Origin: a virus
DNA: 64,000 bases
Direction: 5' to 3' (one strand)
Virus record (IMG/VR): IMGVR_UViG_3300033545_000002
Span: 464-64,463 of that record
This document shows positions 7,787 through 61,590 of this stretch, piece by piece. The notes beneath the pieces were generated by a model. The model made no database searches and was not told where the DNA came from. It saw only the letters and a list, made by a program, of their open reading frames with translations. The number at the start of each line of letters is the position of its first letter. Position 1 is the first letter of the stretch. The position numbers and the translations under genes are program-made.

Positions 7787-8422
7787 TTAACTATTGAATA
7801 AAAGACTTGGTAAATCGCCAAGTAAGTCGGCTGAAATCGTGTCCGGGCCGTACGAAATCCCATTTAGGACTTTGTCTGTGTGCTGTTTAATCTGGAATCC
7901 GCGCGTAGGGATATTCTGATCAGTATTGTACGAAGCCCAATAACTTTTGAATTTCAGATTAACGAACAATTGGGTGTTCGATAAATTTGTACCGAAGCCG
8001 ACGTATATTCCTGGCGTGTAGCCTCCGCTGTTGACTTCTTCCCACCACGCATTGCAATATGCGATGACATCTAAATCACTTGCAGATGTTGCCACTCCTT
8101 CAAGGTCAAGAAAAGTACTTACTAATGGCGGCGCTCCAATTCCTTTTAAATAGGTTACTGCGTATGCGCCCCACTGTTTACCTAATGCTGCCGTCGGTAG
8201 CCAATTCGGTAGAGGGCAATGCTGAACGAAATACAAGGAGAGATATTCAAGGATAGCCTGCATTTCCGGCTGTGTAACATTCCCCGCTGCTAACGCTGGC
8301 TCTCTCGGGATATACCTTGAAATACCCAATATGCCATTGTCGGAAATCTCCTTTGCTTGGGCACCACTCAGAACTTGGTTAATATCCGCATACGCTCCCG
8401 GTATAGCTTGCTTAACTACCAT
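7787..8422 (-). CDS. DUF1906 / GH25-like glycoside hydrolase, putative endolysin
   Basis: ISRYIP, FLDLEG, YTPGIYVG and the FQIKQH pattern of GH25-like TIM-barrel muramidases; last gene of the lysis cassette. Confidence 0.7.
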   Translation of the reverse strand: MVVKQAIPGAYADINQVLSGAQAKEISDNGILGISRYIPREPALAAGNVTQPEMQAILEYLSLYFVQHCPLPNWLPTAALGKQWGAYAVTYLKGIGAPPLVSTFLDLEGVATSASDLDVIAYCNAWWEEVNSGGYTPGIYVGFGTNLSNTQLFVNLKFKSYWASYNTDQNIPTRGFQIKQHTDKVLNGISYGPDTISADLLGDLPSLLFNS

Positions 8423-8431
8423 AAAATAAAT

Positions 8432-8533
8432 TTATTCGGACCAAGGTGATAAAACAAAAATCCAGAAAACTGTCGCTGCTATAGCAAAGGCTACGCATAG
8501 AGCAATTAAAAAGTATCGATCTTTCTTAGGCAT
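8432..8533 (-). CDS. 33-aa single-TM peptide (not in the ORF track)
   Basis: MPKKDRYFLIALCVAFAIAATVFWIFVLSPWSE fills the gap between two lysis-region genes. Confidence 0.5.
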   Translation of the reverse strand: MPKKDRYFLIALCVAFAIAATVFWIFVLSPWSE

Positions 8534-9280
8534 TTACAATTTGATTACCCAGAAGTCCGAGCAAAGATTAGAGAAAAAATAAGCGTAATCCATGTAAAAA
8601 TACCCGTTGAGACCCCACGATGTCCCCCAACTATTCCTGACTTTGAAGGCTTGTTTGCTATCATCGTGACCGGCCAACATTACGCAATGGCCGCCTAGTA
8701 ATTGTTCTGATGCCGTTGGTCTATGCAAAATTCCTGTTTTTGCCACTTCATCCGATTCAAAGGCGGTGTACACATCGAATCCGAACACAATACCGCGTCC
8801 ATGCGCCAGTGTCAATTTAAAGCTATCCGCCGGGGCTCCATCCATGTTGGCGTACGTTCCGATTTCGTTTCCTTTAGCGGACAAATAGGCGGCAGGGGAT
8901 GGCTGGGTGAGCAACATAGATCGGTCGAACGGCCAATCCGTTTCAGGACAGTACCCCCACTTGTGAAGGCCAGAAAGTCCATCGTGGATCATCGCCCCGC
9001 CGTCTTGGTTTACATCCCCTTCGAGAACCCGTTCATTGTAGTAAAGAAAAAGTCTCGAAGGCATGACCAACGGAACTTTAGCATAGCTCATCGATGAAAG
9101 TAAAGCCCCTGCAATTCCGTTTCCGGTGCACGAGCTTGTATCTCCTTGATCAAAACATGGAGGTAACACTGGTTCCAAATCCGAAGTAGCTGGTATCGTA
9201 ACATCATAAGGGGCTACCATTCCGAACTTTAAATCTTCGAAATGTTTTGGAGATCGTTTCCAGTTATATACTCTTGGCAT
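8534..9280 (-). CDS. Papain-family (C1A) cysteine peptidase
   Basis: DQGDTSSC (catalytic Cys), GGHCV (His), VRNSWG (Asn), SRLFLYYNER. Confidence 0.9.
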   Translation of the reverse strand: MPRVYNWKRSPKHFEDLKFGMVAPYDVTIPATSDLEPVLPPCFDQGDTSSCTGNGIAGALLSSMSYAKVPLVMPSRLFLYYNERVLEGDVNQDGGAMIHDGLSGLHKWGYCPETDWPFDRSMLLTQPSPAAYLSAKGNEIGTYANMDGAPADSFKLTLAHGRGIVFGFDVYTAFESDEVAKTGILHRPTASEQLLGGHCVMLAGHDDSKQAFKVRNSWGTSWGLNGYFYMDYAYFFSNLCSDFWVIKL

Positions 9281-9286
9281 GGCGGG

Positions 9287-9772
9287 TTAGTTTAGCAGGA
9301 TGCCTATCGTAGCCAGAATGCCGAATTGCTGGTTTTTGGGCGCATTCGGGTTAAAGGACGGACCGATCTGAATCTCGCTGTTTCCCACCGGGAAAGGATT
9401 ATGGAAACCGAAAGTCAGACCCAACGTCTCGAACGATTGCAGTCCGGATATCGGCAGTGCGCTGTTGATCGGAAACCACGCCGCATTGACTGACCAAATC
9501 ACGGTCAGGGTTTGGGTAGCATAGTTGTAAGACTGATGCTCATACCCAAATTCACCGCCGGAAAGTGCGGATGACGTTCCGTTGAAGGAATAACCGTAGG
9601 CCGCAAAGTTCGCCGTAAACCGCCAGGCATTGACAATGCTATCCGGTTGAACGGTAGCCCCAAGTTTCAATCCGTGCGAAACTCCCGGTTTCGGTTCCGA
9701 TTTGAATGGAGATTGAGCACTTGCGCACAATCCGATAAATAAAGTAAAAAGAGCAATTAAGAGGTATCGCAT
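9287..9772 (-). CDS. Exported protein with a signal peptide, beta-strand-rich (outer-membrane/spanin-like candidate)
   Basis: MRYLLIALFTLFIGLCASA-Q signal peptide; alternating hydrophobic strands in the mature part; ATG at 9772. Confidence 0.6.
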   Translation of the reverse strand: MRYLLIALFTLFIGLCASAQSPFKSEPKPGVSHGLKLGATVQPDSIVNAWRFTANFAAYGYSFNGTSSALSGGEFGYEHQSYNYATQTLTVIWSVNAAWFPINSALPISGLQSFETLGLTFGFHNPFPVGNSEIQIGPSFNPNAPKNQQFGILATIGILLN

Positions 9773-9783
9773 AAAATTTGTTT

Positions 9784-10440
9784 TTAGTTGATTTCTCCTT
9801 CCGGGTGATTTAGTTTTCCTTCCTTTCTCGCTTCTGCAACAACCCAATTATGGAAATCTTCTTTTTCTTTTTTACTCTTTAATTTCAAATCCACTACTGT
9901 CCTCCAATACTCATATCGATTTAGAAGTGTATCGAATCTTTCTTTTGAAAATTGTGTTCTACCATTCATCATATCCAATACAGCAAAATAGGAGCTTTTG
10001 GCCGCTTCTTTTAATTCAGGCACCGACCAATACCAAATACCGGAAGTAATATACTTAGTCGAATCGGCTGGATTCAGATCACAGGCGGTCTGAGCTTTTG
10101 CCATGCAACTGACAAAAAGCAATGCAAGTACCAAAGATGCCTTACTTGTAAATGGCAATTTCGCCTGTAATTTGGCCGGTGGATTGGCTTGCGGAGGGGT
10201 CTGTACAGTCATGAGAGACATAAAAAACGCCACCGATGCAGCAATACCAACTGTTTTACTTTCCATCACAGTCAAGGCAGGGGGAAGCGTTACATTCAAT
10301 GCCGTTAAAAGGGCTGGCAATCCAGAAACGGCTACAACTGCCCCGCTGATCCATTGCCATATTTGGAAAAACTTAGGAGACTTAGCCGAAATGCGACCGA
10401 ATATTTCGATCAAAAAGGCGACTAGAGGATTACTTTGCAT
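9784..10440 (-). CDS. Holin-like membrane protein with a C-terminal extension
   Basis: Two N-terminal hydrophobic segments, then a signal-like segment KASLVLALLFVSCMAKA-Q and a soluble tail. Confidence 0.5.
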   Translation of the reverse strand: MQSNPLVAFLIEIFGRISAKSPKFFQIWQWISGAVVAVSGLPALLTALNVTLPPALTVMESKTVGIAASVAFFMSLMTVQTPPQANPPAKLQAKLPFTSKASLVLALLFVSCMAKAQTACDLNPADSTKYITSGIWYWSVPELKEAAKSSYFAVLDMMNGRTQFSKERFDTLLNRYEYWRTVVDLKLKSKKEKEDFHNWVVAEARKEGKLNHPEGEIN

Positions 10441-10444
10441 AAAA

Positions 10445-10732
10445 TTATTGTTTTGTTGATAGATGATCAGCGGCCATTGTTTCCAGTTTCGTTAACCGGG
10501 TAGATAAGTCGTCAATTTTCCTGGATTGTTCAGCGTCTACTTTATTCACATCTAAAATTGCGCTGGAATTAGCATTGATCAGGGGGATCATTCCAGCGAT
10601 TTTCTCATCCAGTTGGTTGATGCTAAAAAGTACCCACCCGGATAGGGTCATACAAACCGTTAATAGGATAGTATTCAAGTTTAATTGCACGTTCCCGTTC
10701 TTTTTTGTCGTCCCGTTTGTAAGTGGTTCCAT
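10445..10732 (-). CDS. Single-TM coiled-coil protein (holin/antiholin/spanin-like)
   Basis: True start MEPLT at 10732 (the ORF-track extension runs into the IS end); TM segment followed by heptad repeats. Confidence 0.55.
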   Translation of the reverse strand: MEPLTNGTTKKNGNVQLNLNTILLTVCMTLSGWVLFSINQLDEKIAGMIPLINANSSAILDVNKVDAEQSRKIDDLSTRLTKLETMAADHLSTKQ

Positions 10733-10807
10733 TGTTAAAGATAGGTATTTTTTATACATGTGCCGTAAAACCCCTATCCCTTTAGGGTAGGGGATGTAAG
10801 GCACGTT

Positions 10808-11227
10808 TTAGCCCTGTTCTTCAATATATTTTCGTATCGTTTCAGTTGAAGCGTCGCCGGTCGAACAAACAAAATAACCATCCGACCAAAATGTACGCTC
10901 CTTCCAAAAATGTTTTTTCAATTCCGTTGCATATTTTTTCCAGATTCTAAAAGTAGAAAGTTGCTTTAGCTGGTGAACGATTTGAAAAGCGGAAAGCGTT
11001 GGCGGAATATCTACTAAAATGTGGATATGGTCAATATCGCTCTGCATCGTATCAATCGTAAACCCTTTCTCCTGACTAATTTCAAATAACAACTGCTTCA
11101 TGTCTTCGTCCAAACTATCTACCAGCAACTTCTTTCTGTACTTGACTGCAAAAACTATATGCAACTTAATCAAGTATTTGGAATGACTGCTATGGTGGTA
11201 TTTGGCCTTCACAAAACAAATATACAA
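10808..11227 (-). CDS. tnpA: IS200/IS605 Y1 HUH transposase
   Basis: LHIVFAVKYR, HUH motif DHIHIL, FWSDGYF, catalytic Tyr in IRKYIEEQ; non-ATG start (TTG 11227 or GTG 11212). Confidence 0.95.
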   Translation of the reverse strand: MYICFVKAKYHHSSHSKYLIKLHIVFAVKYRKKLLVDSLDEDMKQLLFEISQEKGFTIDTMQSDIDHIHILVDIPPTLSAFQIVHQLKQLSTFRIWKKYATELKKHFWKERTFWSDGYFVCSTGDASTETIRKYIEEQG

Positions 11228-11264
11228 TATTTACAGAAATATATTGAAATGTTTTATATCTTTG
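11217..11264. promoter_or_regulatory. Divergent Bacteroidota -7 promoter elements inside the IS
   Basis: TATATTTG on the minus strand (11217-24, toward tnpA) and TATCTTTG on the plus strand (11257-64, toward the HNH gene). Confidence 0.6.
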
Positions 11265-11297
11265 TAAAAGTGTTTTTTAAAACATTTGGCAATAATA

Positions 11298-11993
11298 ATG
11301 ATAACGGCACAAAGCGAAATTTCAATAAAGGATAGCTACTTGCGAAAAGCAATGTATTCCATATACGATGGTAAATGCTTTTATACTGGTAGAGCAATTC
11401 CATTCGATGATATTCATATTGACCATATAATCCCCAAAGCAAAAGGCGGTAAAGATTGCGTTGAGAATTATGTTTTGTGTTGTGGGTACATAAATTGTAA
11501 AAAAAACGATAAGTTAGATTCTCTTTTTGTTGAAAGAATTTCTCTAATAAATAAACTCTTGTTTGTAGAAAAGGTGGTTTCTGAATACAATAATATTTGT
11601 TTAAATGGAGCAATAGAGGCGAGCATGATAAATATAAATGACTTTTTAAGAAATTATAAACTACATACTCATCCAAAAAGAACCTCCTTTGTACAGGGGG
11701 CAAAAAGAAACTTGCCGTACATTGAATATAGACCAATGGCATCTCCACAAAACGGCAAAAAGGGCTTATCAACGAAAAAGAGGTTCTATTTTGATAAAGA
11801 TTCATTACAGCAGTATTTTAATAAATTCAAATCGCCAGAAGAATGGCGTAATACATTAGAGCAATCATGCGGCACGCATCACGAAAGAGATGTAAATGCC
11901 GCTCAAAATATTAAGAGCTTCGGGCTTCGGAACAAGCCTACAGGTGCTAAGCCAGCAATAGTTGGTTTGCCTGCGAAGCCGCTACACCTTTAG
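11298..11993 (+). CDS. HNH endonuclease fused to a TnpB C-terminal remnant
   Basis: CFYTG...HIDHIIPKAKGG...NYVLCCGYINCKKND (HNH); C-terminal SCGTHHERDVNAAQNIK matches the TnpB zinc-ribbon end / RuvC-III segment. Confidence 0.85.
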   Translation: MITAQSEISIKDSYLRKAMYSIYDGKCFYTGRAIPFDDIHIDHIIPKAKGGKDCVENYVLCCGYINCKKNDKLDSLFVERISLINKLLFVEKVVSEYNNICLNGAIEASMININDFLRNYKLHTHPKRTSFVQGAKRNLPYIEYRPMASPQNGKKGLSTKKRFYFDKDSLQQYFNKFKSPEEWRNTLEQSCGTHHERDVNAAQNIKSFGLRNKPTGAKPAIVGLPAKPLHL

Positions 11994-12005
11994 GTTAGCG
12001 GTAGT

Positions 12006-14147
12006 TCACAAAGGTGCTATTCGTTGATCCCTCATTATGTGCCATCTTATAGGCGAACTTACATTGAATCCAGATACTTGAACTAATACAAGATTTGGTG
12101 TACCCTGTATCGAGTATCCGGATTGATGCGTTGATAGTCCGCTAGAAACATAGGGACTGTTATAGGAAATATATGGCGACCCATACGCATTACCGAATCT
12201 GGATAGCATGACTGTTTGCTGACCAACTCCGGTAAAATGTTGAACGGTATCGTATGAAAAATAAGATAGGTTAAAAACTCCTGAACTATTTGGGGGCAAT
12301 GCAAGCGTATCGGCTGTAACGTACGCGGCGGTGGTTGCTAATATTGAGTGAGAGTATATACTATCCAGTACTACCTTGCCGCCGCTCCCCGGAGAGATTG
12401 GTCCGATTGGGATAGACCCACCTACCGTAATGGTAGCCGTGACAGTTGTTTGTTTGTACTGATCATCCGTTGCGATGATCTGGATAGTATGCGTCCCGGT
12501 AGTGAGCCCTGAAATGGTTGTGGTCGCACTATAGGGTTGAGCGATCGTCGAAGTGGGGCAACCGTGAAGGGTCGTTTCCGATACCCGGATGTTGTTGACC
12601 GTGTGGCCACCGGCTGCTGTTATAGTGGGGCTGAAACTGGTAGATGTACTCGTTATCGTCTGATTCGACCATCCGGTGACGGTTGGGGGCGCTTCCGAAT
12701 AGTAGGTATAGGAGCTGCAATAGGTAGCCGTAGGAAGGGTATCGCAATAGGGGGAGTGACGCGCTACTCCCGCTACATCATTGAAGGGAAAGATCATATC
12801 GAGCCCCAGATGACTGCGAGAAGCCGTGTCGTAACTGTTAGGATAGATACTCTCCGGATTGCCGGAGATATACTGTTGATCATAGACGCCATTAGCCTGA
12901 ACGCCAGCCTTGTTTCTGCCCAGAGAATGGAGGACATGGTTAATATCTTCGGCGATCGTATAACAACCGAAGGTATGTCCAGCATAAACAGCCAGATAAG
13001 TGTGGCAGGAATCAAGTAATTTAGCTTGCACAACCCCGCTTTCCAATGGAACGGGTGTTTGGTCCTGATCCCATGCCCAAGGTGTTTTAGAGGCCCCGTA
13101 AAGCGGTGGACTTCCATAGGTATTCCAATGCGGTTTCGGGTTGATGCCTAAACTGGAACAAACATCATCTCCCCACCCATACAGATAACCGGTATTGAGG
13201 ATAGCGTAGGTGCAAATATCCCCAAATCCAAAGGAGGATATCGATCCGGCCGTCAGGCCTATGTTCGTCATCACATTGGTTGGAGTTGTCGGAGAGCTAC
13301 CCAGTGTTCCGCACCACGTCTGGTAATTGAATCCCCATCCGTATAAATTTCCGTCTGTCCCGAGATAGGCGAACCAGTAGACGCCGAGATCGATTTGTTT
13401 AGGAGTGGCGGCCAGCCCGGTCAATTTGTGGAGCGTCAGGTCCGAAGTCCCATTACCAGTGAAGGAAGAACTATTGCCAGAGGTATAGATTTTCCTTACC
13501 CCCGTTCCGTTTTTGGTCAGCACCATCAGGATGGCATCCCCCTTGGCGTCGATGATGGTATCCCCTGCATCAAACCCCGTAATCGGAACAAAATAGCCGT
13601 TGTCTGTGGTAGGGTTCGAACCATTTCCGCGAATGCCGCCTTCAAGCAATCCTGCCGCCCATAGGGTGTCGCCCTGCGCCCCGGATTTCCATGCTAGACA
13701 AAATGATCCGAACGTATTGGCAGAAGCAAAACACCCTGTAATGTTGTTGAAGACATGGCCCATACTGTCTTGTGTGACTGCGGTAAACTGACTTTGATTG
13801 CCGGCCGATCCACCCAGCCCCAGAGAATGGTTGTCGTTGATGCCCGTTCCGTATAAAATACCTTTTCGAATGGCAAACTGACTATGCAGGCACGACGACC
13901 CTCCGGTCACGCTATCCAGTGTCGCACCAGAACCTGCAATCTGTCCCGGACAAAGAAGGCCCGGCTTTCCATTGGTTCCAGGGGAGCTATTTCCAACTGC
14001 TCCGCCGATGTTGCCGCTTCCGAATCGCATGTTCACGATATCGGCGTATCCGCACTGATATTCACCGGGCCAGACGATATATTGAGGGGATTGGGCAGAC
14101 ACGCAAGTTGCCAGAAAGATCAACGCGATGGTCAATAGTTTTCTCAT
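12006..14147 (-). CDS. Exported RCC1-like beta-propeller plus Ig/PKD-like protein (putative adhesin / receptor-binding protein)
   Basis: Signal peptide MRKLLTIALIFLATCVSA-Q; repeats LGTDGNLYGWG and LNTGYLYGWG; Thr-rich Ig-like segment; ATGA overlap at 14147. Confidence 0.7.
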   Translation of the reverse strand: MRKLLTIALIFLATCVSAQSPQYIVWPGEYQCGYADIVNMRFGSGNIGGAVGNSSPGTNGKPGLLCPGQIAGSGATLDSVTGGSSCLHSQFAIRKGILYGTGINDNHSLGLGGSAGNQSQFTAVTQDSMGHVFNNITGCFASANTFGSFCLAWKSGAQGDTLWAAGLLEGGIRGNGSNPTTDNGYFVPITGFDAGDTIIDAKGDAILMVLTKNGTGVRKIYTSGNSSSFTGNGTSDLTLHKLTGLAATPKQIDLGVYWFAYLGTDGNLYGWGFNYQTWCGTLGSSPTTPTNVMTNIGLTAGSISSFGFGDICTYAILNTGYLYGWGDDVCSSLGINPKPHWNTYGSPPLYGASKTPWAWDQDQTPVPLESGVVQAKLLDSCHTYLAVYAGHTFGCYTIAEDINHVLHSLGRNKAGVQANGVYDQQYISGNPESIYPNSYDTASRSHLGLDMIFPFNDVAGVARHSPYCDTLPTATYCSSYTYYSEAPPTVTGWSNQTITSTSTSFSPTITAAGGHTVNNIRVSETTLHGCPTSTIAQPYSATTTISGLTTGTHTIQIIATDDQYKQTTVTATITVGGSIPIGPISPGSGGKVVLDSIYSHSILATTAAYVTADTLALPPNSSGVFNLSYFSYDTVQHFTGVGQQTVMLSRFGNAYGSPYISYNSPYVSSGLSTHQSGYSIQGTPNLVLVQVSGFNVSSPIRWHIMRDQRIAPL

Positions 14148-14452
14148 TGGCAGGGACATTTAAAGTACTTGTTTGGGTTCATGAACCTGAGATTCCGCTT
14201 CTGTTTTTTGGCGTCATACCTCTGCGGATCCCATTGCTGATAATACTCGAAAGCCATCTCCCTGAAATGTCTGGCTCGCCCATCGTAGAAGACAAAACTG
14301 TCTATTTCTCCAGCGTTCCGTGCGCAGATAGCCCGGCAGCGGTTAATGAAGAAGCTGTCTGTGGTCCGGTGCAGATTACACTGGACGCTATCAGTTTTCT
14401 GCGCCATCGCAGCCAGCGGGAGGAAAAAGAATATAGTTATAACGTATTTCAT
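14144..14452 (-). CDS. Small exported Cys-containing protein
   Basis: Signal peptide MKYVITIFFFLPLAAMA-Q. Confidence 0.7.
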   Translation of the reverse strand: MKYVITIFFFLPLAAMAQKTDSVQCNLHRTTDSFFINRCRAICARNAGEIDSFVFYDGRARHFREMAFEYYQQWDPQRYDAKKQKRNLRFMNPNKYFKCPCQ

Positions 14453-14464
14453 TTTTGAATATCT

Positions 14465-17400
14465 CTAAAATCCTGTGATAGAATAGTACCAACTGTATTG
14501 TGTTGCAGGGGTAAGGGCCGTTGTTCCGGCATTAATTGTCCAACTTAAGGGTGAGGCTGTGCTGGCATAGACCATTGTTACACCAGACAATAGGGCTGTA
14601 GCTGAATTTGCCGGGGTAAGGGTAATGAAGGGTTGGTTGGTATATCCAGAACTACCAGCAAATGTAATGGTAGCAATAATAGCGTTCGATCCAGAAGGCG
14701 TCGTCCCTATGGTAACAAACACTTGCCCCCCAACATTTGTACCATTAATTGAAATAGTAGGGGATGTTCCAGCTCCACCACCAGCGGCAATTCCGGGAAC
14801 AGAAGAATTACCGAAAATCAAATTGATGCCAGTTCCGTTGGCAGTGAAACTCCATATCCCAGTTGCCGTTTTGGTTCCTGCAATCGTTTGTGTTCCGGTG
14901 GACAGAATACCCGGATTACTTCCGGTGGCATACCCTAGCGTTAATGTGTTTCCTGAAATAGTAGCTCCATTGGTATAAGAGGTAGACGGCGAACCTATTG
15001 TTGTAACGCCGCCCCCAATTGCTGATACCGGCACTTCATCCCAAGCACTATCTGTACGATGAACCAGTATTTGATATCCTGTTCCCGGAGCCCCCGATAG
15101 ATTATTCAAATATTGTGGAACGGTGAAGTAATTTATTCGGTTGGTGAAGGCGAAATTGTAGGGATTTCCGGTTAAAAATCCGGCTAAATTAAGGCTATCG
15201 CCAACCGGCCAGATGTCTCCCGGTCGTATCACATCAGGGATGGTCTTTCCGACAATCGTTCCGGCCACCGTCATCGTTCCTGTTGTCGAGGATGAGAAAG
15301 TAACTGACGACCGGGTGCAGACCGTTATTACATAAGTGCCGTTGTAGCCAGATGGGGCAACTCCTGCAATAATGACCTTTGAACCGACTTTGAATGGCGG
15401 GATATCCTGCTGGGCGAAAAAGATCGTCACCGCGCTTCCGGTCGCTGTTATGGATGTGATCGTCAGGTTGTACCAGGTGATGTGAAGGGATGGGAAGCTG
15501 TCGAGATTGTTCCCCTGCGGTATGTCCACCATAGCGTAAGGCGTCTTCATCGAGAACCCCACGCGTTCGGCATCAGCACCGTTGCCTGCAATTATGGCAC
15601 AACCAGAACATCCGACCTGAGCGTTCTGCCCCAAAGCCGTGGAATTGGACAGGTTCGCCGTGCTGTCTGCACTGCCGATATTTCCGGCACTATACCCTAT
15701 ATAGGTATTGAATGAGCCGGATGTATTTGCCGTTCCTGCCGTGTAACCCACTCCCACATTCCCAGTGCCGGTCGTATTTTGAAAAACTGATCGACCTAAC
15801 CCACTATTGTAATTTCCGTTCGTTGTATAGAAGGCAAATTGCCCTATGCCCATATTATAAAGGCCGCTCGTCAAAGTGAAAAGAGACTGCGATCCTTCTG
15901 CACTATTACCGCTGCCGGTCGTCAAATGATTTAGGGCTTGATATCCGTTGGCTGTGTTTTGAGTGGCAGATGAAGTAGTGGCGGAAGCGAGAGCCTGATA
16001 ACCGACCGCCACGCTTTCAAGACAACCACTACAAGCGTCCAATGCCTGATTCCCGATAGCCACGTTATCTAGCGAAGTAAGTGCATTTTGCATGGCATTA
16101 TTCCCGATGGCCGTATTGCCGGTAAAAGATGCTGATGCTAAACCTTGACCATAAAGTGCGTATCTTCCAAGGGCGGTATTATCTGTGGGGGTGACACCTA
16201 TACCCCCCGCATAAAAGCCAATATAATTGTCATACAAACCAGTCCGATAGTTGACAGGAGAGGCCGGATAACAAAAACACAATCCTTCCGTATCCACAAT
16301 AACAGGTCCTCGCCCAAGTTCATAATTGTTTACTAGCAAATCCCCAGTGGCAAAAGTGGCTATGTATGGGCTATTGGATTGGGTCAATTTACTCGGATAG
16401 GGGATAAAGCTCCCCACCGTAAGATCATTAGCGATTACCCCAAACCCCTGTACCTCCAAACCCCCTACTCTTTGTAGAGAAGGGATAGCGGCCAATATAG
16501 CGTTCTTTATGTTGTAATGACCCGAACCGTTCGGATGTAAACTGTCGGACCAAACAGCAGCGTAACCGTCTCTGGCCTGCGTGTAGGCGTAGGCATTTGC
16601 GAATAAAGTCCCGAGCGAAGTCGCTGTCGTTTGCATTTGTGTGACGTAGGGAAGAAAAAGGGCATTATTCGTTGAGCCGGAGTAAGGTGCGCCGATCCAA
16701 ATAATCTGATTGAGCGACCAGCCTCTGGCAACGCAGGTATCGGTCACGGTAACCATCGCTGCCGCGAAAGTTGTTGTAGTAATCGGCGCGTCTCTGGCGT
16801 CATTGGCGAGATATTCGAAAGTGATATATCTGTAGTTGCTATTCCAGCGGGGGATATCGGCGATACGATCGATCATTGAACTGTCACCCGTCGACCGTTT
16901 AACGAGGGTTGTTCCTGATATTCCTCTATTCATGCCTATAGTTCCCAAATCGTGATTCAGTTGATAGGCAAACCCCAACGAGAGATAAATATTAGCAGTT
17001 GCTACGGATGTATGAGGAAGCCCTTGTCCCGATGCGGTTCCAGCTGTGATAGATGTACCGAAATTCCAAGTTGTATCTACCTGCGAGAATACGGAATCCC
17101 CCACTTGATTAACTCGATGCGTAAGATGGTTATTCGCATACGCGCTGTCAAATGCTTTAGGACCGCTGAAAGTTTGAGCCGCATTATTGACCATTCCCGG
17201 AACGGTTGTCGATGCGCTTTGGGCATAAATACTTGACCCATTAATCCTAAGACCATTGGGCAATCCCGCCGCACTGTCGATGGGACCGACGAGCGTCACT
17301 CCGCTACCACCCCCACCGCCTCCTGAAGGAATAGGCAATTTGTATAATTGCCCTGCAATCGTTTCGATCAATACGCTATCGGTAGACAGGGCCGTGCCCT

Positions 17401-18934
17401 TTCCTGGTAGCCCAGTAATAAAGAATGGAAATCCTGCTGTAAAAATCGTATCCGGTTGGTAAAATGTCCCGTAAGATGTCCCCAATTGAATAGAATCCCC
17501 ATGAGTTCCGGCAGGTCCGGTCCCCTCAACAGCATATATAAAAAACGGTTGTCCCCACTTCCACCCTATTTTCCCTGTTGCCGGATCAATGGTTACTAGA
17601 CTATCGTTTACCGTCCCGGTGAACCCGCTTCCGGTATAATTATTAAACTCCGCTTGCCCTGTTGACAATAGGGTTATCCCGGAAGTAGCCCCAATAGCTA
17701 AAGATGCGGAATTGCCCGTCGTACTGGACAGGGTGGCGGCAGCATCGGAATTGAACGTCCGGCCCCACACATGAGAAGCAGCGTCTGAAGAACTTCCAAT
17801 GGCATACGTGTTGTTTGCCGCAAAACTGATGCTAGACCCCATTGCTATTCCACCATTGAATGTATTGGTGGCCGTGAACGTTTGAACAGACCCCAATAGC
17901 GCAATAGAGCCGCTTGCCCATCCGTTAAGTATAGAAATTGATGGAACGGAGAATGCAGCCGGAGCGGAAGATCCGGTGTTATTCATGAATACCGAGTTGG
18001 CCGCTGCATTAACTGCTGTAAACGTCAGAGTAGACCCAGACACCCCATTGGTGAACAAAGGAGAGAAGCCACCACCGCCTGTCAAAGATCCGCCGCCTGA
18101 GCCGCTGGAAGCCACCGTTATTTGCCCTGCCGCATTATATGTAAGAGCGCAATTGGTACAAGTTCCTGCCGTAATAACAGAGAGTAATGTCGGGTTAGGA
18201 TAAGTCCCGGCCAATGCCCCACCTGCCCCTATCCCTGTAATCCCAGTTATATATCCAGGACCATTGGTGAATGATGAAAGATTAGTAGGGAAAGTAGCCA
18301 ACGATAGGTCTCCCCTAAAATATTGTGAGGTAGATCCGAGGGTTATAGTCCCTTGTTTGGACGCCAAATCGGAAGTGAGATTTGTTACTTGGCTTTCAGC
18401 TATCTGAATAGGAATTGAGCCAGCTATGGTGATCAATCCCTTCCCGTTGACTGTAAAATCGGCAACATGAGCCGCATCTCCAAAAGACCCAACGTTTGTA
18501 TTAACGGTTGCGAGAGTGAACGCCTGACTTCCAGACCCCGGTCCCGCTGTTCCATCGCCCGTAAGTTGAGTGATACCGCCTCCAACCGCGCAGGTCGGAC
18601 ATAGTATGCTGTCATTCCTGAAAACTATGGGAGAAACTCCCGTCAAAGAAGCTATTCCACCCCCTTTGCCTATTTCCTCCCATGTCGCTCCTGTCCATAA
18701 CCATAATGCGGTATCAATGCCAGTATGTACATATCCGACGACGGTGAAAGGAAATTTAGGGGTAAAAGTTGGAGTCCTGTTGGGAAATATATGTCCACTA
18801 TCATCCTGCATCCAACCAATTCTGTAGTATCCAGTTGAATACGGGGAGGGAAATCCGGATGGGGCCGGAAGCTGCGCTTTAGCTCCAAAAAATGTCATCA
18901 ACAAAAGAGACCATATAAGTATTTTAGTTCGCAT
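14465..18934 (-). CDS. Tail fibre/spike-like protein with an SGNH esterase domain and YadA-head-like repeats, carrying a signal peptide
   Basis: MRTKILIWSLLLMTFFGAKA-Q; SGNH blocks FGTSIT, NRGISG, LANDA, DSLHP; about 11 NTAIG/NVAIG-type repeats; G/S/T-rich. Confidence 0.8.
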   Translation of the reverse strand: MRTKILIWSLLLMTFFGAKAQLPAPSGFPSPYSTGYYRIGWMQDDSGHIFPNRTPTFTPKFPFTVVGYVHTGIDTALWLWTGATWEEIGKGGGIASLTGVSPIVFRNDSILCPTCAVGGGITQLTGDGTAGPGSGSQAFTLATVNTNVGSFGDAAHVADFTVNGKGLITIAGSIPIQIAESQVTNLTSDLASKQGTITLGSTSQYFRGDLSLATFPTNLSSFTNGPGYITGITGIGAGGALAGTYPNPTLLSVITAGTCTNCALTYNAAGQITVASSGSGGGSLTGGGGFSPLFTNGVSGSTLTFTAVNAAANSVFMNNTGSSAPAAFSVPSISILNGWASGSIALLGSVQTFTATNTFNGGIAMGSSISFAANNTYAIGSSSDAASHVWGRTFNSDAAATLSSTTGNSASLAIGATSGITLLSTGQAEFNNYTGSGFTGTVNDSLVTIDPATGKIGWKWGQPFFIYAVEGTGPAGTHGDSIQLGTSYGTFYQPDTIFTAGFPFFITGLPGKGTALSTDSVLIETIAGQLYKLPIPSGGGGGGSGVTLVGPIDSAAGLPNGLRINGSSIYAQSASTTVPGMVNNAAQTFSGPKAFDSAYANNHLTHRVNQVGDSVFSQVDTTWNFGTSITAGTASGQGLPHTSVATANIYLSLGFAYQLNHDLGTIGMNRGISGTTLVKRSTGDSSMIDRIADIPRWNSNYRYITFEYLANDARDAPITTTTFAAAMVTVTDTCVARGWSLNQIIWIGAPYSGSTNNALFLPYVTQMQTTATSLGTLFANAYAYTQARDGYAAVWSDSLHPNGSGHYNIKNAILAAIPSLQRVGGLEVQGFGVIANDLTVGSFIPYPSKLTQSNSPYIATFATGDLLVNNYELGRGPVIVDTEGLCFCYPASPVNYRTGLYDNYIGFYAGGIGVTPTDNTALGRYALYGQGLASASFTGNTAIGNNAMQNALTSLDNVAIGNQALDACSGCLESVAVGYQALASATTSSATQNTANGYQALNHLTTGSGNSAEGSQSLFTLTSGLYNMGIGQFAFYTTNGNYNSGLGRSVFQNTTGTGNVGVGYTAGTANTSGSFNTYIGYSAGNIGSADSTANLSNSTALGQNAQVGCSGCAIIAGNGADAERVGFSMKTPYAMVDIPQGNNLDSFPSLHITWYNLTITSITATGSAVTIFFAQQDIPPFKVGSKVIIAGVAPSGYNGTYVITVCTRSSVTFSSSTTGTMTVAGTIVGKTIPDVIRPGDIWPVGDSLNLAGFLTGNPYNFAFTNRINYFTVPQYLNNLSGAPGTGYQILVHRTDSAWDEVPVSAIGGGVTTIGSPSTSYTNGATISGNTLTLGYATGSNPGILSTGTQTIAGTKTATGIWSFTANGTGINLIFGNSSVPGIAAGGGAGTSPTISINGTNVGGQVFVTIGTTPSGSNAIIATITFAGSSGYTNQPFITLTPANSATALLSGVTMVYASTASPLSWTINAGTTALTPATQYSWYYSITGF

Positions 18935-19358
18935 AACTGTACATTATTATATATGTCTGCCCGGCTTGTACCGCCTGATTGAAAGTTATTGTCATGCTTG
19001 TATTACCGGTGTACGAAACCGTGTAGCTTACCTGAGTGTCATCATCCCGATCTAAAACAACACCGCCCAAAATTACGTTCACGCTGTCTTGTATGATATT
19101 GGCCTGATTAATCGGCAATACCGTTTGCCCTGCCGTCATCGGCGAACCAACATCCCCTATAGTAAACTGTAATGGAACAAAGACAATGCTATTCAGGAAG
19201 CAAGTAATAAGGCTTCCCATTGTCCTATGAGCATAGCCAACCGTATAGTTTCCGTTAGCATCCAATCCGCCTATCGCGTTGGCAACCACTATCAATTCAT
19301 TTGGTCCGGGACATCCGGTCAATATGGGGTATGAGATTTCGTCGATAGTACACGCCAT
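18924..19358 (-). CDS. Putative virion/tail accessory protein
   Basis: 144 aa beta-rich ORF directly upstream of the fibre gene. Confidence 0.6.
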   Translation of the reverse strand: MACTIDEISYPILTGCPGPNELIVVANAIGGLDANGNYTVGYAHRTMGSLITCFLNSIVFVPLQFTIGDVGSPMTAGQTVLPINQANIIQDSVNVILGGVVLDRDDDTQVSYTVSYTGNTSMTITFNQAVQAGQTYIIMYSYAN

Positions 19359-19368
19359 AGTTTTAAAA

Positions 19369-19773
19369 TTAATTCCTCACAACCTGACAACCGAATCTTG
19401 TCACACCACACCCGAATCTCGTTACATTGTAGCCGCCAGAGCAATTATTGAAAATAGTTACGTTACATCCATACCGTTGCACAAGGCAATTGTTTCTTGT
19501 CACAATCGCCGGAGCGCAAACGATCTTACAAGCATTATTCATGTACTGTGTAAATTGGAATACTCCTGTAAATTGAGTACTCCCAAAGACTTGACCTGCA
19601 TAATAGATTAGAAAAACCTTTTTGGCGACAATACACTCTGTCTTTGTGTACTGCCGGATGATATCGCATCCTAATGGTTTTACTAAGTCACACCTAAGAT
19701 TGAAGACCTTTGGAAATTCAAGAATTTTACCGTCAACCGTGTCGGCCAAAAAGATAAAAGTCTTGTATGCCAT
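19369..19773 (-). CDS. Cys-rich protein with C-terminal VTRFGC repeats
   Basis: ...NVTRFGCGVTRFGCQVVRN. Confidence 0.6.
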   Translation of the reverse strand: MAYKTFIFLADTVDGKILEFPKVFNLRCDLVKPLGCDIIRQYTKTECIVAKKVFLIYYAGQVFGSTQFTGVFQFTQYMNNACKIVCAPAIVTRNNCLVQRYGCNVTIFNNCSGGYNVTRFGCGVTRFGCQVVRN

Positions 19774-20342: not shown

Positions 20343-20361
20343 TCTATAGAGCGAGTAAATA
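20343..20361 (-). promoter_or_regulatory. Candidate phage late-promoter motif
   Basis: TATTTACTCGCTCTATAGA, 15/19 identical to the motif upstream of the portal gene. Confidence 0.4.
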
Positions 20362-20365
20362 GGTG

Positions 20366-20406
20366 CTTTGTCCCTACAAATGAAGATATTCTTTGTCCCT
20401 ACAAAT
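20366..20406. repeat. Tandem 16-bp direct repeat, each copy with an internal dyad
   Basis: CTTTGTCCCTACAAAT at 20366-81 and 20391-406. Confidence 0.85.
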
Positions 20407-21809
20407 CAGAAATCGCCTGATATTAGTTTCTTGTCTTTCAGAAATTGAAGTCTATTTAGCACGCACTTTTCATTTTCCTTAGACAGAAAATCCGATTTAG
20501 GACGATAGTAAATCCCTTTCAAGGAAAAGTAATGAAGACTGTTGTATAAAGAGGTCACGGCCTCCTTAACGGTTTGGCCTCTACCAACCACATATCCCAA
20601 TGGGGCCGAGCTAAACCATCTGTACCCTATATTTACCATAGCATCTTTATCGGGATGCCTTTTGATTTGATATAAGAAGAAATCCTGTTCGTTCTCGGAA
20701 ATCGTCATGGGAATGTCACCTTGTGGTAATCCCGGCGCTTTATGATCGGCATCCAATGTATAAAGGGCCAGCGAAGCCCCAACATCATAATTATACGGAT
20801 TACCGCCTTCTTTTAGCCTTATAAAGTAATACCCAATGTTCCCGTTTTCGTCCATAGAGGCCGATAATTCAGAAAATATTCCACCCCATCCCCATCTACA
20901 TCCAGCGAATTCCGTAAAATACAAATCAGTTCCATCACTTAAAATTCCAGCATCCCTGATATAAATTCCTTTTCTTTTTTTAGCCTCTTTATACACTACT
21001 TCCGGGAATATTATTTTATTGATGGCGTCATCCAAAGGGATATTGATAACTATATTTTCATTCCCTCCGGTCTGAGGTCCAATATCGAGAGGGCCGAACA
21101 TCCTGGTTTCGATCTCAATTTGAGAATAGATCGGTTCGCCATCGTAAAATACCATTTGAGGGGTGAATTCTATAGGGTTCATTATTTTTTCTTCCGCCAT
21201 AATTTTACCCTTCTCGAAGTCCTTCCTGTTTTCTTCAAGCTCTGATATGACTTGATTGCGGCCCATCTCCAAATCATCCTTGTCGGGCACAAGCGTTTCT
21301 GCAAAATTACCGTCGCTCTTGATGACCCATAATTTATCTGACTCTTTTACAAACTTAATAACGTCGTCAACCCTCTTAAACTCCTGTGTCTCTTTTAGTT
21401 TTACGCCTTTATAATGTTTTTTCAGAAAGTCCTTTGCCATCTTTCGGTCCTTCTCCATTAAATAATCGTACTCCATAGGGAAAAGACCATGCTCATAGCC
21501 CATTTTTAAAACTTGTTCGGATATCTTATACTGATTGTTGTAATCAAATACGATAAACCAATCGTCCTTATTTTTCTGATATTTTAAAAATGTCAGCGTA
21601 GATTCTAATGAATACTTTTCAATGAACCCGTCGTATATTGACAGCCTTCTTTTTCTGCATTCCATCGCCTCGGCGTCATTAATCCAAGATGAAACACCGA
21701 GAGATGATGCATTGCGTATTTGGCAAACTCTTACTTCGTACCCTTCCAGCAATAGTTTTCTGGCAACACTTAGTATTGCGCAGTCGTAAGTAAAGAAGCA
21801 AAAACGCAT
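20406..21809 (-). CDS. PurD/GARS-like ATP-grasp ligase
   Basis: WVIKSDG, AEEKI..E, DIGPQTGG and YFTEFAGCRWG parallel the GARS ATP-grasp motifs; no purine operon context. Confidence 0.75.
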   Translation of the reverse strand: MRFCFFTYDCAILSVARKLLLEGYEVRVCQIRNASSLGVSSWINDAEAMECRKRRLSIYDGFIEKYSLESTLTFLKYQKNKDDWFIVFDYNNQYKISEQVLKMGYEHGLFPMEYDYLMEKDRKMAKDFLKKHYKGVKLKETQEFKRVDDVIKFVKESDKLWVIKSDGNFAETLVPDKDDLEMGRNQVISELEENRKDFEKGKIMAEEKIMNPIEFTPQMVFYDGEPIYSQIEIETRMFGPLDIGPQTGGNENIVINIPLDDAINKIIFPEVVYKEAKKRKGIYIRDAGILSDGTDLYFTEFAGCRWGWGGIFSELSASMDENGNIGYYFIRLKEGGNPYNYDVGASLALYTLDADHKAPGLPQGDIPMTISENEQDFFLYQIKRHPDKDAMVNIGYRWFSSAPLGYVVGRGQTVKEAVTSLYNSLHYFSLKGIYYRPKSDFLSKENEKCVLNRLQFLKDKKLISGDF

Positions 21810-23767: not shown

Positions 23768-26700
23768 TCATTTTTGATTTTTTTCGTAATAAGGATCATT
23801 TTCTCTTCGCTCATCTACCCTTTGCTGGCTGGCATCTATTTTGTCGGCCCTGTCTTCCTCAGCCTGTTCTTTCGTCGGAACAAAGCCTCTGCCTCCTACC
23901 CTGAGTAGGATATTTTGCCAAGGATTCTCGCCTTTTCTTTCGATCAATTTACCGTCCGCATCCGTATCGAAATACTCAGATATGTTTTTACCTGCCATTT
24001 GAGTAGTAAAGCTATTGAATAAATTGGCAGGAGACTGAGCAATATCTCCAAGGCTCTTTAAAGCGGATTCTTCCCATGCCGTCCGAACCACTTCGGAAAG
24101 TCCGTCAAAGGCTGCGGTTCCCTTGTCCGCCTCATCCTTGTAGTCTCCACGTTCATCCTTGTACTTTTGAACGTAGGTAGCCCCCATGACGGCAGGCATC
24201 AAGGGGGGCAAGTGCATAATTACCGCTGACCAAAACTTACCTACCTTGTGCCCGTTTATGGCTATTTCGCCGTAATTCAATTCTTCCAACTCCCCGGTAT
24301 CGGCATTCAGGAACTTTCTTTTCTTTTTACCCTCCCCATAAGCTCCCCCGAATACCAAATTACCTTTGGCAGCCATTGATCCTGCCACCATAGCCAATCC
24401 TAGACCTATAGCGCCCTTATTAAAGTATTGAATGATACTATCCCGCTTTTCGGCTGGTAGGCTTTGCATGTGCTCCCTGATAGCGTCCATTGTGCCGTTA
24501 AAGTCTTTGATTCCATCTTTTATGGTCAGATCGTTAGCGTTGAGGGCCATCCCTATCTCATAGAAGGTTTTGCCAATAGCAACAGGGATACCAGCCGTGT
24601 ATTTGAATAAGCCCTCCGCCTCAATATTCAACGGAACTTTCAAAACAGGGGTTACCGATTGCAGCCAGAAAGCGAACGCCTTCCCCAAAAATCCCCCTTC
24701 TGACGCCTTGGCTTCGGCTCCCCGGATCGCTTCGGCTACTGGATTCTTATTCTGGAATTTGCCGCCTAAAAAGTCGTTATAAGATTGTAAAGCGATACCC
24801 TCCAATTTTGAAGGCGTCAATTGCTCTCCGGCCTTGATCCTTTCGGATGCTCTTTTCAGAAACCCTTCGACAAATGCTTGACGGGCTGAAATATCTTTTT
24901 CGGCTCCGTGGGTACGGCCAAATATTTCGAGTGTATGAATGATCCGGTTTATGCCCGTTCCGATAGCATGTTTACTCTTTTCATCAGCCCATGTGGTGCC
25001 TCGATACCCGCCCATGCTTTCTTCAAAAGTGGATACACCTGATTGTAGAATTTTCAACCGTTCAGCCCATGAATTAGGAGCAATAAAATCATACATGGCA
25101 GCAGCGGCCCATTCGTATTGAGCGGACTGATAATCGTTGACTGCCTTGGTATATTCGTCGTCTTTGTATGGTTGGTATTCAGGTGTTCCTTTGAGTGAAT
25201 TTAATTGATCGTTTGCGGCCTGTAAATTAGTAGTAGCTGTTTCGAGTGCCTTTGTCGTAGTGCCTCGTTTTTCGGCTGCCTGCCGTTGCGTCATACCCTT
25301 GAAAGAATCCTCAAAAGAACGGATTGTAGCATCATTGTTCAATACTTCCCGCTCTCCTTTTAGCCCTAACATTCTAAGTGCCGGGGTCGTTACTGTGCCA
25401 ACCGTCCGCCTTACCAATGCATCCGAAACGGGCTTAACGACCGTAGCAACCAATACTTTCCCGTTGGTCATAATACCGGAAATTAGGTTGGCTCGTTGTA
25501 AACGTTGCAGACGGGTAATTTGCCGTTGCCAAAATCCTTGATTCTGTTTATGGTACTTGTCTATTTGGTAGGCTAAATCGTGTTCAGCCTTTTTTCGGTC
25601 GCGGGTTAGTTTCATCAATTCCTCATCCTTTTTATAGTCGGATAGTTTGTGGGCGTCTTCAAAATCACCGGCGGCCAACTTACGTTCAGCCTGTTCTTTA
25701 CGCGTAATCTCTCTATTCTTGACTTGCTCTAACTGAATATCCTGAAGGGAGGAGTTGTTATCTTTTTTAAGTTGAGTGCTGAGATTTTTAAGATCGGAAA
25801 GAATTTCGGCCTTTCGCCCGGTCAGCAGGTTAGTGATATTAGTCGTATGCAACCGACTTGCGGCGGCTTGTGCCTTTTTGATCTTATCATCCAACTCTCC
25901 GGCGTCAATTTTCACACCCATTTTATTCAACTCGCTTTGGACAGAACGGAGGGCCTTTTTATCTTCATCAGAAACGGTATCATCATTCAAGAGATCGGAT
26001 ATTTTATCCTTCAAATTACCGACGCGTTCGTTATGCGCTTCAATAACTTTTTCTTTGGCGGCGCGTGAATCTTTGCTTCCGGTTTCCAACTTAACCCCGT
26101 TCTTAATAAGCGCCTTCCTTAATTCCTCTCGCTTGGCGGCCAAGTCCTTATCAACGCCTTTACCTTTCTTGGCTTTCTCCCATACTTTTTGATGATTGTC
26201 TAAATCGGCAATACGTTTATCGTATTCGGCCAATCTTTCGGCCTTCTTTTGCGCGTCTTTTATGTCACGGGCCGCGCGACCACGTTCTTTCAATAACTGG
26301 GCCTTTTCGTCGCGTAGCTTTTGTTCATAATCGGAAATGATCTTGGATTTTTTTTCCTTGTCAGCACCATAAAGATCACTACCGGCTTCCAATGCTCCGA
26401 TATCTCTTTGCAGAACGGTAATGTCATGGAATGTCTGTGCGGACTTTTTTACCTGATCTTCTAAGTCTTTACTTTTCTCAGGAGTAAACTTGCCTTCTTT
26501 CAAATAGGCATCCCGTAGGGTCTTAGCGTCCAATCCTGGGAAGGCTTTACCCAATTCCTCCACTCCCTTGTCGAGAATCTTTTCCGGGTCCGTTTGGCCT
26601 CTTTTAGCTATATCATGGAGATAATCACGGACCAATCCATTATCCACCATTTTTTGAGTAATGGCCTTAACGTCTGAATTTTTGGCAATCTCTTTCATCT

Positions 26701-33763: not shown

Positions 33764-34187
33764 TTGTCAAAAGATTATTCGTATGATGCTCGATTATTCT
33801 GGCCTCGATTTCTTCCAAATCTTCAGTATCATCAGGATTGCTGTGGATAGTTATCCAATTACAATCTTCTATTACATCCAACACTCGGCGCGTTCCTGGT
33901 TCTGTTATTCCACAATGAGGGGCTTCTATCAACTCCCACCCTTTACCATCCTGCCACACTCTAACCTTACCCCTCAATACAAAGAATGGATGACGAAATT
34001 TATGTATCCGGCTGGTGATCTTGCTTCCGGCTGCCATGAAAATCTCTCTCATATACATGCCCGGCATGAAGGTATGGGCCAGTGGGAAATCAGCCTTCTG
34101 GTAACGATCCAATAGCGCCCCTTCCAAAGCATCTATGCAATCGTTAACCTCTGGCCTTACCAATGATTCGGTATTAGTATAACACAT
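33753..34187 (-). CDS. Cupin-fold phage protein
   Basis: HTFMPGMYMREI, IHKFRHPFFVLRG, GITEPGTRRV. Confidence 0.75.
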   Translation of the reverse strand: MCYTNTESLVRPEVNDCIDALEGALLDRYQKADFPLAHTFMPGMYMREIFMAAGSKITSRIHKFRHPFFVLRGKVRVWQDGKGWELIEAPHCGITEPGTRRVLDVIEDCNWITIHSNPDDTEDLEEIEARIIEHHTNNLLTNET

Positions 34188-34473
34188 CTTTAGGGTTTAT
34201 TTTTATCGTTACCGGACCATCGGTAGCAGGACCTTTGAATGTCTTAATATCACATGAATCATATTCTGCCCAATAAAATTCTGTAGTCTTCATTTGTGTA
34301 AACAATGGGAACAAGGCTTGCATTTGCCAAAACAGAGTAGTGCTGTTATCAAAGGGAATTGCAGGTGGGCCAACTACCGGTTCCTGCTTTTGGATGGCTT
34401 TTAATACGGAGCCGGGTACTATTGCCGCTCCTATTGCGAATAAAGCTCTTTTGAAGAATGATTTTCTGTCCAT
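34174..34473 (-). CDS. Small protein with a Tat-signal-like N-terminus
   Basis: MDRKSFFKRALFAIGAAIVPGSVLKA. Confidence 0.55.
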   Translation of the reverse strand: MDRKSFFKRALFAIGAAIVPGSVLKAIQKQEPVVGPPAIPFDNSTTLFWQMQALFPLFTQMKTTEFYWAEYDSCDIKTFKGPATDGPVTIKINPKDVLY

Positions 34474-59385: not shown

Positions 59386-59388
59386 TTG

Positions 59389-61267: not shown

Positions 61268-61279
61268 AGTTAAATACTT

Positions 61280-61588: not shown

Positions 61589-61590
61589 TG

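Follow-up and report, generated by a model that had tools for sequence, protein, structure and literature searches.

Why would a tailed phage furnish a fiber-like late protein with a signal for export from the cytoplasm? The question is raised by IMG/VR virus record IMGVR_UViG_3300033545_000002, an uncultured tailed phage of Bacteroidota from soil, of which bases 464-64463 were analyzed (64,000 nucleotides, hereafter the window). Tailed-phage virions are taken to assemble wholly in the cytoplasm, and exported late phage proteins are usually lysis factors or exclusion lipoproteins. On the minus strand of this phage a single long late operon runs from the packaging genes through the virion genes and the gene for a giant protein of 2508 amino acids (aa) to a leader region and the lysis enzymes. 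Five proteins of the leader region, among them a fiber-like protein of 1489 aa, have predicted Sec signal peptides followed by Gln. A first-pass annotation of this DNA had proposed that the five mature in the periplasm and either join the particle during lysis or are displayed on the infected cell. Conservation of the leaders across a family of fiber-like proteins, together with an excess of O-glycosylation motifs in the proteins that carry them, points to export; where the exported fiber may act is weighed thereafter.

Predicted signal peptides of the fiber-like protein and its neighbors

Leaders were called with a crude heuristic scan for n-, h- and c-regions and an AxA motif in about 118 open reading frames (ORFs) of at least 50 aa from the 86-kb genome. 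The four classical signal peptides of the first-pass annotation were all present in the translations as it had described them, each on the minus strand. In the fiber-like protein (14465-18934), residues 1-20 (18875-18934) end in ..GAKA before QLPAPS. The leader of a 102-aa protein (14144-14452) reads ..LAAMA then QKT, that of a 717-aa propeller protein (12006-14159) ..TCVSA then QSP, and that of a 161-aa protein (9287-9772, with its ATG at 9772) ..LCASA then QSP. A fifth, signal-like segment was likewise found inside a minus-strand ORF of 218 aa (9784-10440), where residues 95-116 end in ..SCMAKA before QTA and a TTG at 10158 would yield a 22-residue leader. In all five, a basic n-region leads into a hydrophobic stretch 10-14 residues long, positions -3 and -1 hold small residues, and +1 is Gln. 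Genome-wide, the scan placed AxA leaders followed by Gln only in the fiber, 102-aa, propeller and 161-aa genes, which are adjacent.

Gln at +1 is what the Q-rule describes for Bacteroidota substrates of Sec and signal peptidase I (SPI) (Bochtler et al. 2018, PMC5837995; PMC10653852). The annotation had invoked this rule, and it holds in 5/5 leaders of the window and throughout the fiber family. An alignment of 18 fiber homologues has a mean pairwise identity of 29% in the leader vs 56% in mature residues 21-60, and Gln21 is its first invariant column. The 18 leaders are 19-25 residues long, with Lys or Arg within the first eight residues in 17/18; position -1 is always Ala, Gly or Ser, and -3 is small or aliphatic in 17/18. 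Across the family the leaders diverge in sequence and retain their physicochemical character. An exhaustive HMMER search with the mature N-terminal domain (N-domain; residues 21-130) returned 195 cluster representatives at E <=0.001, in which the domain begins almost always at protein residue 20-31. A complete leader with Gln behind it occurs in 135 of the 150 best representatives, and in none does the N-domain start at Met. The remaining 15 comprise eight truncated gene calls (seven still ending in [AS] before Gln), five with a leader followed by Asn, Ser or Gly, and two unrelated matches. At least four unrelated types of mature N-domain stand behind such leaders on otherwise related fibers. 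A dual cytoplasmic isoform made from an internal start was considered and rejected, as Met42 is not conserved in the 18-sequence alignment.

Because the leaders are conserved across the family and absent from the rest of the genome, they are not due to chance, and on the strength of these comparisons they are very probably genuine Sec/SPI signals with cleavage before Gln. Since their n-regions are basic, most of each protein is predicted to cross the membrane, and as far as can be told the five proteins would end up in the periplasm.

Behind its leader the fiber-like protein has a conserved N-terminal domain (residues ~21-330), a SGNH/GDSL esterase domain (residues ~625-806; Lipase_GDSL_2, E 1.3e-8, above the curated cut-off), a tailspike-like repeat region (residues 903-1044; phrog_4636 tailspike, E 2.6e-15) and a variable tip. 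The conserved N-terminal part, some 310 residues, carries paired CxxC motifs, which hint at disulfides. A search with the whole fiber gave 66 relatives, with identities of 64-85% limited to 18-35% of the query; the sequences put the shared part at the N-terminus, and the distal parts differ. About 30 of the closest, all on contigs of <=92 kb, keep leader and Gln save for one N-terminally aberrant gene call, whereas distant homologues from other phage types begin with Met-Ala or Met-Ser and are leaderless. The leader-bearing family is known only from metagenomes. Against cultured phage records, tblastn with the whole fiber matched annotated tail proteins over only 8-12% of the protein, and neither megablast of the leader region nor tblastn of the fiber N-domain matched any of 50,697 phage records. 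PDB sequence searches with the fiber and with the 1019-aa and 1602-aa proteins of the phage gave no match, and an ESM Atlas feature search with the N-domain returned scores <0.9, which we treat as leads only.

The fiber resembles known Q-rule substrates in its n-h-c leader, the small residue at -1 and Gln at +1, the last invariant among the 18 aligned sequences; it differs in that the leader here stands on fiber-like late proteins of 1000-2000 residues from a lytic-type tailed phage, and cleavage and pyroglutamate are predictions. Phage genes with predicted SPI cleavage exposing Gln have precedent in Porphyromonas gingivalis prophages, where five Q-rule ORFs of unknown function were read as envelope modifiers and their Gln as an adaptation to host secretion (Matrishin et al. 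2023, PMC10367356). Here, by contrast, the leaders are on a fiber-like recognition module and a lysis cassette, are an obligate feature of at least 195 protein clusters, and are coupled with an enrichment of O-glycosylation sequons. Fibers of the cultured phages crAss001 and phi38:1, and esterase tailspikes in general, have several traits in common with ours: they close the virion module, contain tailspike-like repeats and an esterase or depolymerase domain, and are mosaic in their distal regions. Unlike ours, the crAss001 and phi38:1 fibers start at Met, and no leader was found on phi38:1 gp085 and gp087 or on crAss001 gp22-26; they are assembled in the cytoplasm. Literature searches on signal peptides of Bacteroidota phage fibers found no description of leader-bearing, sequon-rich fiber-like proteins.

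Two other export classes were considered and rejected. The five leader proteins have no NCBIfam or Pfam match to a type A or B C-terminal sorting domain of the type IX secretion system (T9SS), so they are not T9SS cargo. Lipoprotein processing by signal peptidase II was dismissed in that homologues do not keep the Cys found at -4 in three leaders of the window; what they keep is [AGS] followed by Gln.

O-glycosylation sequons in the leader proteins

General O-glycosylation in Bacteroidota uses the sequon D[ST][AILVMT]. According to a 2025 review, the motif is enriched in non-cytoplasmic proteins throughout the phylum and glycosylated only in such proteins, and engineered motifs become glycosylated; phages are not mentioned there (PMC12871550). 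We counted sequons in the mature parts of the proteins and derived expected counts from composition. The five leader proteins of the window hold 27 sequons vs 7.4 expected, an observed-to-expected ratio (O/E) of 3.6 (z 7.2), with 14 vs 4.6 in the fiber and 9 vs 2.6 in the propeller. Six control tripeptides, made with Glu or Asn for Asp, a non-hydrophobic third residue, Ala or Gly in the middle, the reversed motif, or Gly first, gave O/E values of 0.7-1.9 in the same proteins, none significant, and the sequon itself reached an O/E of only 0.70 in 28 other late and lysis proteins of the phage.

The same contrast was seen among relatives. In fiber relatives, O/E was 2.7 for 27 leader-bearing vs 0.76 for 19 leaderless proteins. 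In seven related phage contigs (L010-L014, L085 and L086), 22 leader proteins had an O/E of 3.01 (179 vs 59.4) vs 1.02 for 77 neighbors, and the 15 leader proteins that are not fibers reached 3.77. Every leader protein of the window and of these loci has at least one sequon, and a D74-(S/T) site is conserved in the fiber N-domain. In the fibers gp22-26 of crAss001, the cultured phage scored, there is no such excess (O/E 0.3-2.1; 16 vs 13.2 expected overall).

The within-genome contrast and the tripeptide specificity are hard to explain other than by periplasmic exposure, and periplasmic modification is suggested because the excess is found only in leader proteins. If the proteins are exported, their O-glycosylation is likely. 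The comparison with the general Bacteroidota system is close in that the sequon and its enrichment in non-cytoplasmic proteins are the same; it departs from that system in that the substrates would be phage proteins, and the glycan is predicted (PMC12871550). The first-pass claim of periplasmic maturation with disulfides and glycans fares unevenly against these data: export is backed by the conserved leaders and glycans are suggested by the sequon excess, and disulfides are hinted at by the conserved CxxC pairs.

Upstream of the packaging genes lies a cytoplasmic glycan-tailoring cluster (58762-63506, minus strand) with Pfam matches to GT11, GT25, Glyco_trans_1_2, FkbM and two Methyltransf_24 domains, all of whose members are leaderless. 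In Bacteroidota, O-glycans are assembled in the cytoplasm with undecaprenyl phosphate as the carrier, and fucose and O-methyl sugars are among their components (PMC12871550, PMC8698959). As a speculation, the phage cluster might tailor the undecaprenyl-linked glycan of the exported proteins. The gp27 protein of crAss001 (L084, 25093-25695), a signal-anchor 'lysis regulatory protein', has 4 sequons vs 0.3 expected, so Bacteroidota phages may generally load their exported lysis proteins with sequons.

A recognition module and a lysis module in one late operon

The seven related loci have a common cassette, consisting of a leaderless gene that covaries with the fiber N-domain, the leader-bearing fiber, often a leader protein of 76-102 aa, a large RCC1/PKD protein, transmembrane (TM) proteins resembling i-spanins or holins, one or two small leader proteins, sometimes a patatin, and a lysin. 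By this comparison the five leader proteins of the window fall into two modules, one of recognition (fiber, 102-aa protein and propeller) and one of lysis (the 161-aa protein and a protein of ~124 aa encoded by the 218-aa ORF). The annotation had described the whole set as fiber- or adhesin-like, which needs amending: the 161-aa and ~124-aa proteins belong to the lysis cassette instead.

Upstream of the fiber, a leaderless protein of 144 aa (18924-19358, minus strand) has a stop codon that overlaps the fiber start. Its homologues precede fibers of the PSGF/PTGF N-domain type wherever the upstream gene was called (L010, L011 and L085), and the gene before fibers of other N-domain types (L013, L014 and L086) is unrelated. 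The 144-aa protein is a candidate for a virion adaptor or a partner of the fiber. A complex prediction with three copies of the fiber N-domain and the 144-aa protein scored 0.00, which gives no verdict and was counted neither way. Directly downstream of the fiber is the Cys-rich, exported 102-aa protein, with homologues bearing leader and Gln in L011 (102 aa) and L086 (76 aa) and no family match in Pfam, PHROG and NCBIfam profile searches. It is a putative fiber-assembly chaperone because of its position, which is the usual one for such chaperones.

The propeller is probably a second host-recognition protein. Its RCC1-like beta-propeller and PKD assignments come from weak, sub-threshold Pfam matches (PF25390, E 1.1e-12, 48.4 bits with a curated cut-off of 150 bits, plus a weak PKD match). 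In the window and the seven relatives, six copies have a clear leader with Gln, one (L013) has none and one is unclear. The C-terminal motif of the propeller, ..RWHI..DQ.IAPL (12006-12100), recurs at the end of a 154-aa leader protein (L011, 18919-19383) and of a 696-aa PKD protein (L014, 15346-17436), and appears to be a mobile C-terminal module.

The lysis cassette contains the 218-aa ORF, whose residues 1-94 form a holin-like TM protein and residues 95-218 (9784-10158) an exported protein of ~124 aa. In L086 both halves are separate genes, at 20358-20768 (a weak Phage_holin_10 match) and 20775-21140; the latter, which starts at an ATG of its own and has a leader ending in ..SAKA before QEG, encodes a 121-aa homologue of window residues 117-218. 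We read the 218-aa ORF as an in-frame fusion or dual-start gene and the fifth signal as real because the L086 homologue is a separate gene with its own leader. Next to it, homologues of the 161-aa protein all have a leader and an invariant Gln20; in L010, L011 and L014 the lysin gene follows directly, and in L012 and L086 a single patatin gene lies between homologue and lysin. The AlphaFold2 model of the 161-aa protein (mean predicted local distance difference test score (pLDDT) 62.7) has six long antiparallel strands and matches small outer-membrane beta-barrel domains weakly among the AlphaFold Database clusters (TM-score 0.42-0.51), and a Foldseek search against PDB gave nothing significant. 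As a lead from this model, the protein could be a small beta-barrel that disrupts the outer membrane. A strain variant seen in a rhizosphere DNA run (X3) has 551 other bases instead of 8436-9717, the stretch that encodes a C1 peptidase and almost the whole mature 161-aa protein, and keeps the leader-coding start at 9717-9772; this suggests module swapping just behind the leader.

The other members of the cassette are all on the minus strand. A TM and coiled-coil protein (10445-10804, its likely start an internal ATG; weak phrog_4172 match) has homologues of 91-94 aa in the same place in L010 and L014; it is either an i-spanin-like signal anchor or a holin. A papain-family C1 peptidase (8534-9280; PF00112, E 6.6e-9) and an Rv2525c-like glycoside-hydrolase lysin (7787-8422; PF08924, E 2.5e-13) are leaderless, and the lysin ends the cassette in L010, L011, L012, L085 and L086. 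A patatin-family phospholipase lies between the small exported protein and the lysin in L012 (20125-20997) and L086 (21610-22476) and could be a lipid-attacking lysis factor of these relatives; the gene is absent from the window, where the C1 peptidase occupies that place. The order in which an exported protein stands between a holin-like gene and the lysin is kept in L010, L011, L012, L014 and L086. The ~124-aa and 161-aa proteins are best read as a lysis module, in which export would be ordinary. They resemble signal-arrest-release (SAR) endolysins and spanins in their predicted export and their place between holin-like TM proteins and lysin, and are unlike them in having neither an o-spanin lipobox nor a sequence match to known spanins.

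An insertion sequence (IS) of the IS200/IS605 type (10756-12009) separates the recognition module from the lysis cassette. It holds an IS200-like Y1 TnpA (10808-11227) and an HNH ORF with a TnpB-like C-terminal tail (11286-11993), and local GC falls to 38% there. Contigs from other samples differ at the element, with 1182 letters in place of 10808-11974 or 1037 in place of 11243-11865. The best matches of the TnpA among genome contigs (72%) are small contigs of metagenome-assembled genomes from assorted unrelated phyla and were uninformative about the host.

The complete record is 86,051 bp long with inverted terminal repeats and an estimated completeness of 72% (CheckV). Its large terminase (55065-57104; phrog_6681, E 4e-40) has its nearest cultured relatives, at ~26% identity, in podophages of Flavobacteriia (Cellulophaga phi38:1, Calle, Flavobacterium 'elemo' phages and Maribacter Panino). 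The crAss muzzle C-terminal domain is matched weakly, just below threshold, by the 1602-aa protein (E 9.7e-6, 26.4 bits, cut-off 27 bits). Phage DNA is present in metagenomes of root, rhizosphere and soil. Contigs assembled from two soil and rhizosphere RNA libraries span 12.1-19.6 kb, which covers the propeller, 102-aa, fiber (including its leader-coding 5' end) and 144-aa genes; the coverage, patchy and of low depth, leaves out the neighboring CHAP and ATP-grasp genes at 19.6-21.0 kb. This coverage is compatible with transcription, and differential transcription across ~19.6 kb is possible.

Two further features of the virion block were observed. The Cys content of its leaderless proteins is very uneven, with 10 Cys in 134 aa (19369-19773), 18 in 396 aa (39635-40825) and 26 in 1019 aa (42574-45633), and none in the 2508-aa giant protein (23768-31294) or a 554-aa protein (31294-32958). 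The sole further exported-looking protein of the late operon is encoded by a 99-aa ORF (34174-34473, minus strand) with a Tat-like leader, ..DRKSFFKRALFAIGAAIV..LKA|IQ, which has an R-K pair at the twin-arginine position.

Assembly on the virion or action at the cell envelope

The fiber has the hallmarks of a virion receptor-binding protein: its gene stands at the end of the virion module, overlaps the preceding gene and covaries with it, its conserved N-terminus is joined to a mosaic distal part, and it contains tailspike-like and SGNH domains. These features, all read from sequence, would favor a virion role. How export could be reconciled with such a place is suggested by the following scheme. 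The fiber, the 102-aa protein, the propeller and the two lysis-cassette proteins would pass Sec unfolded and be cleaved before the invariant Gln, which a host glutaminyl cyclase would convert to pyroglutamate. O-glycosylation would take place in the periplasm on D-(S/T)-hydrophobic sequons, and the fibers would fold, trimerize and be glycosylated there with the 102-aa protein as co-exported chaperone. Once holin and lysin merge the compartments, at or just before burst, the fibers would dock via the conserved N-domain onto fiberless particles. The leaders and their conservation, the sequon excess, the synteny and the lack of T9SS and lipoprotein signals are observed; export, cleavage, pyroglutamate formation and glycosylation are predicted from the data given above, and attachment to the virion after export is speculative. 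The whole chain from export to docking at lysis, including a weaker form in which only part of the fiber pool is mounted, is held tentatively, at slightly less than even chances. That a large, uncultured group of Bacteroidota phages builds its fibers extracytoplasmically, possibly with a phage-retailored glycan, and mounts them only at lysis is a stronger statement, which we regard as possible and somewhat doubtful.

Several points weigh against this chain. Docking at lysis would have to compete with dilution, and we know of no tailed phage that adds Sec-exported fibers. There is no recognizable route from the periplasm to the cell surface. The propeller of L013 is leaderless, so export is not obligatory for the propeller, and the homologues in the sequon tests are not phylogenetically independent. 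The AlphaFold2 model of fiber residues 1-345 (pLDDT 42.7) has a helix at residues 2-19 only and was too poor for a fold search, and the RNA-library contigs may stem from DNA carry-over.

The alternative that survives best is that the exported fiber and propeller remain bound to the envelope of a cell, be it infected or lysogenic, or are released free, and are not on the virion; we consider it doubtful and yet a real contender. The proteins could then be adhesins tying infected cells to new hosts, matrix-degrading enzymes, or a receptor-destroying or receptor-masking SGNH esterase that prevents superinfection and loss of progeny on debris. Exported phage proteins encoded beside fiber genes are known, as with T5 Llp, lambda Lom/Bor and Cor. 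Export and the sequon excess fit this alternative equally well as the docking scheme, the SGNH esterase domain could act on envelope glycans, and one relative, L013, is temperate, with an integrase. The MAT fibers of Bdellovibrio bacteriovorus, which act at the cell surface, join a signal peptide and a conserved, beta-rich N-domain (~130 aa) to a mosaic trimeric fiber like those of phages (Caulton et al. 2024, PMC10769870). The fibers of our family match them in leader, conserved N-domain, length and interchangeable tips, a likeness of layout only, and differ in that MAT genes are chromosomal genes of a predator that act on its own surface, whereas the fibers here are encoded in phage virion operons. 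Against a role off the virion, the fiber gene ends the virion operon and overlaps a preceding gene that covaries with its N-domain. The proteins have neither a T9SS C-terminal domain nor a lipobox for reaching or anchoring at the surface, and the family resembles receptor-binding proteins in its large size, its mosaic tips and its restriction to contigs of phage size (<=92 kb). No other fiber-like or receptor-binding protein gene, leaderless or otherwise, was recognized in the 86-kb genome, which at an estimated 72% completeness could have one in its unrecovered part.

It is improbable that the hydrophobic N-terminus is instead an uncleaved membrane tether or assembly element holding the fiber at the inner membrane until lysis. 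Hydrophobic N-terminal helices can be signal anchors, as in SAR endolysins, and the lone helix of the AlphaFold2 model covers just this segment. Against a tether stands the cleavage-site signature (Ala, Gly or Ser at -1 and Gln at +1 in 18/18, a small or aliphatic -3 in 17/18), which an anchor would not need; leaders of 19-25 residues with basic n-regions would put the bulk of the protein in the periplasm regardless, and the sequon excess likewise implies periplasmic exposure. Finally, chance or artefact, through wrong start codons, composition or a sequon excess arising from fiber repeats, is very improbable even granting that the leader scan is heuristic, that fibers are repetitive and rich in Ser, Thr and Asp and that counts from related homologues are not independent, since the leader is kept in at least 135/150 divergent representatives with conservation beginning exactly at +1, the control tripeptides including the reversed motif are not enriched, and O/E is 0.76 in leaderless fibers with the same repeat modules and 3.8 in small non-fiber leader proteins.

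The fiber-like recognition proteins of a whole phage family thus carry Sec leaders tuned to the phylum of their hosts, together with an approximately threefold excess of sequons. If the fibers are mounted on particles, this would be a two-compartment morphogenesis and the first virion glycosylation by a periplasmic en-bloc system, with consequences for the stability of the fibers, for host range and for recognition by the immune system. Should the fibers remain on the cell instead, tailed phages would be using a virion operon to deploy MAT-like adhesins or receptor-modifying enzymes. Either way, the combination of leader, Gln and sequon density would serve as a simple marker of host phylum for uncultured phages.

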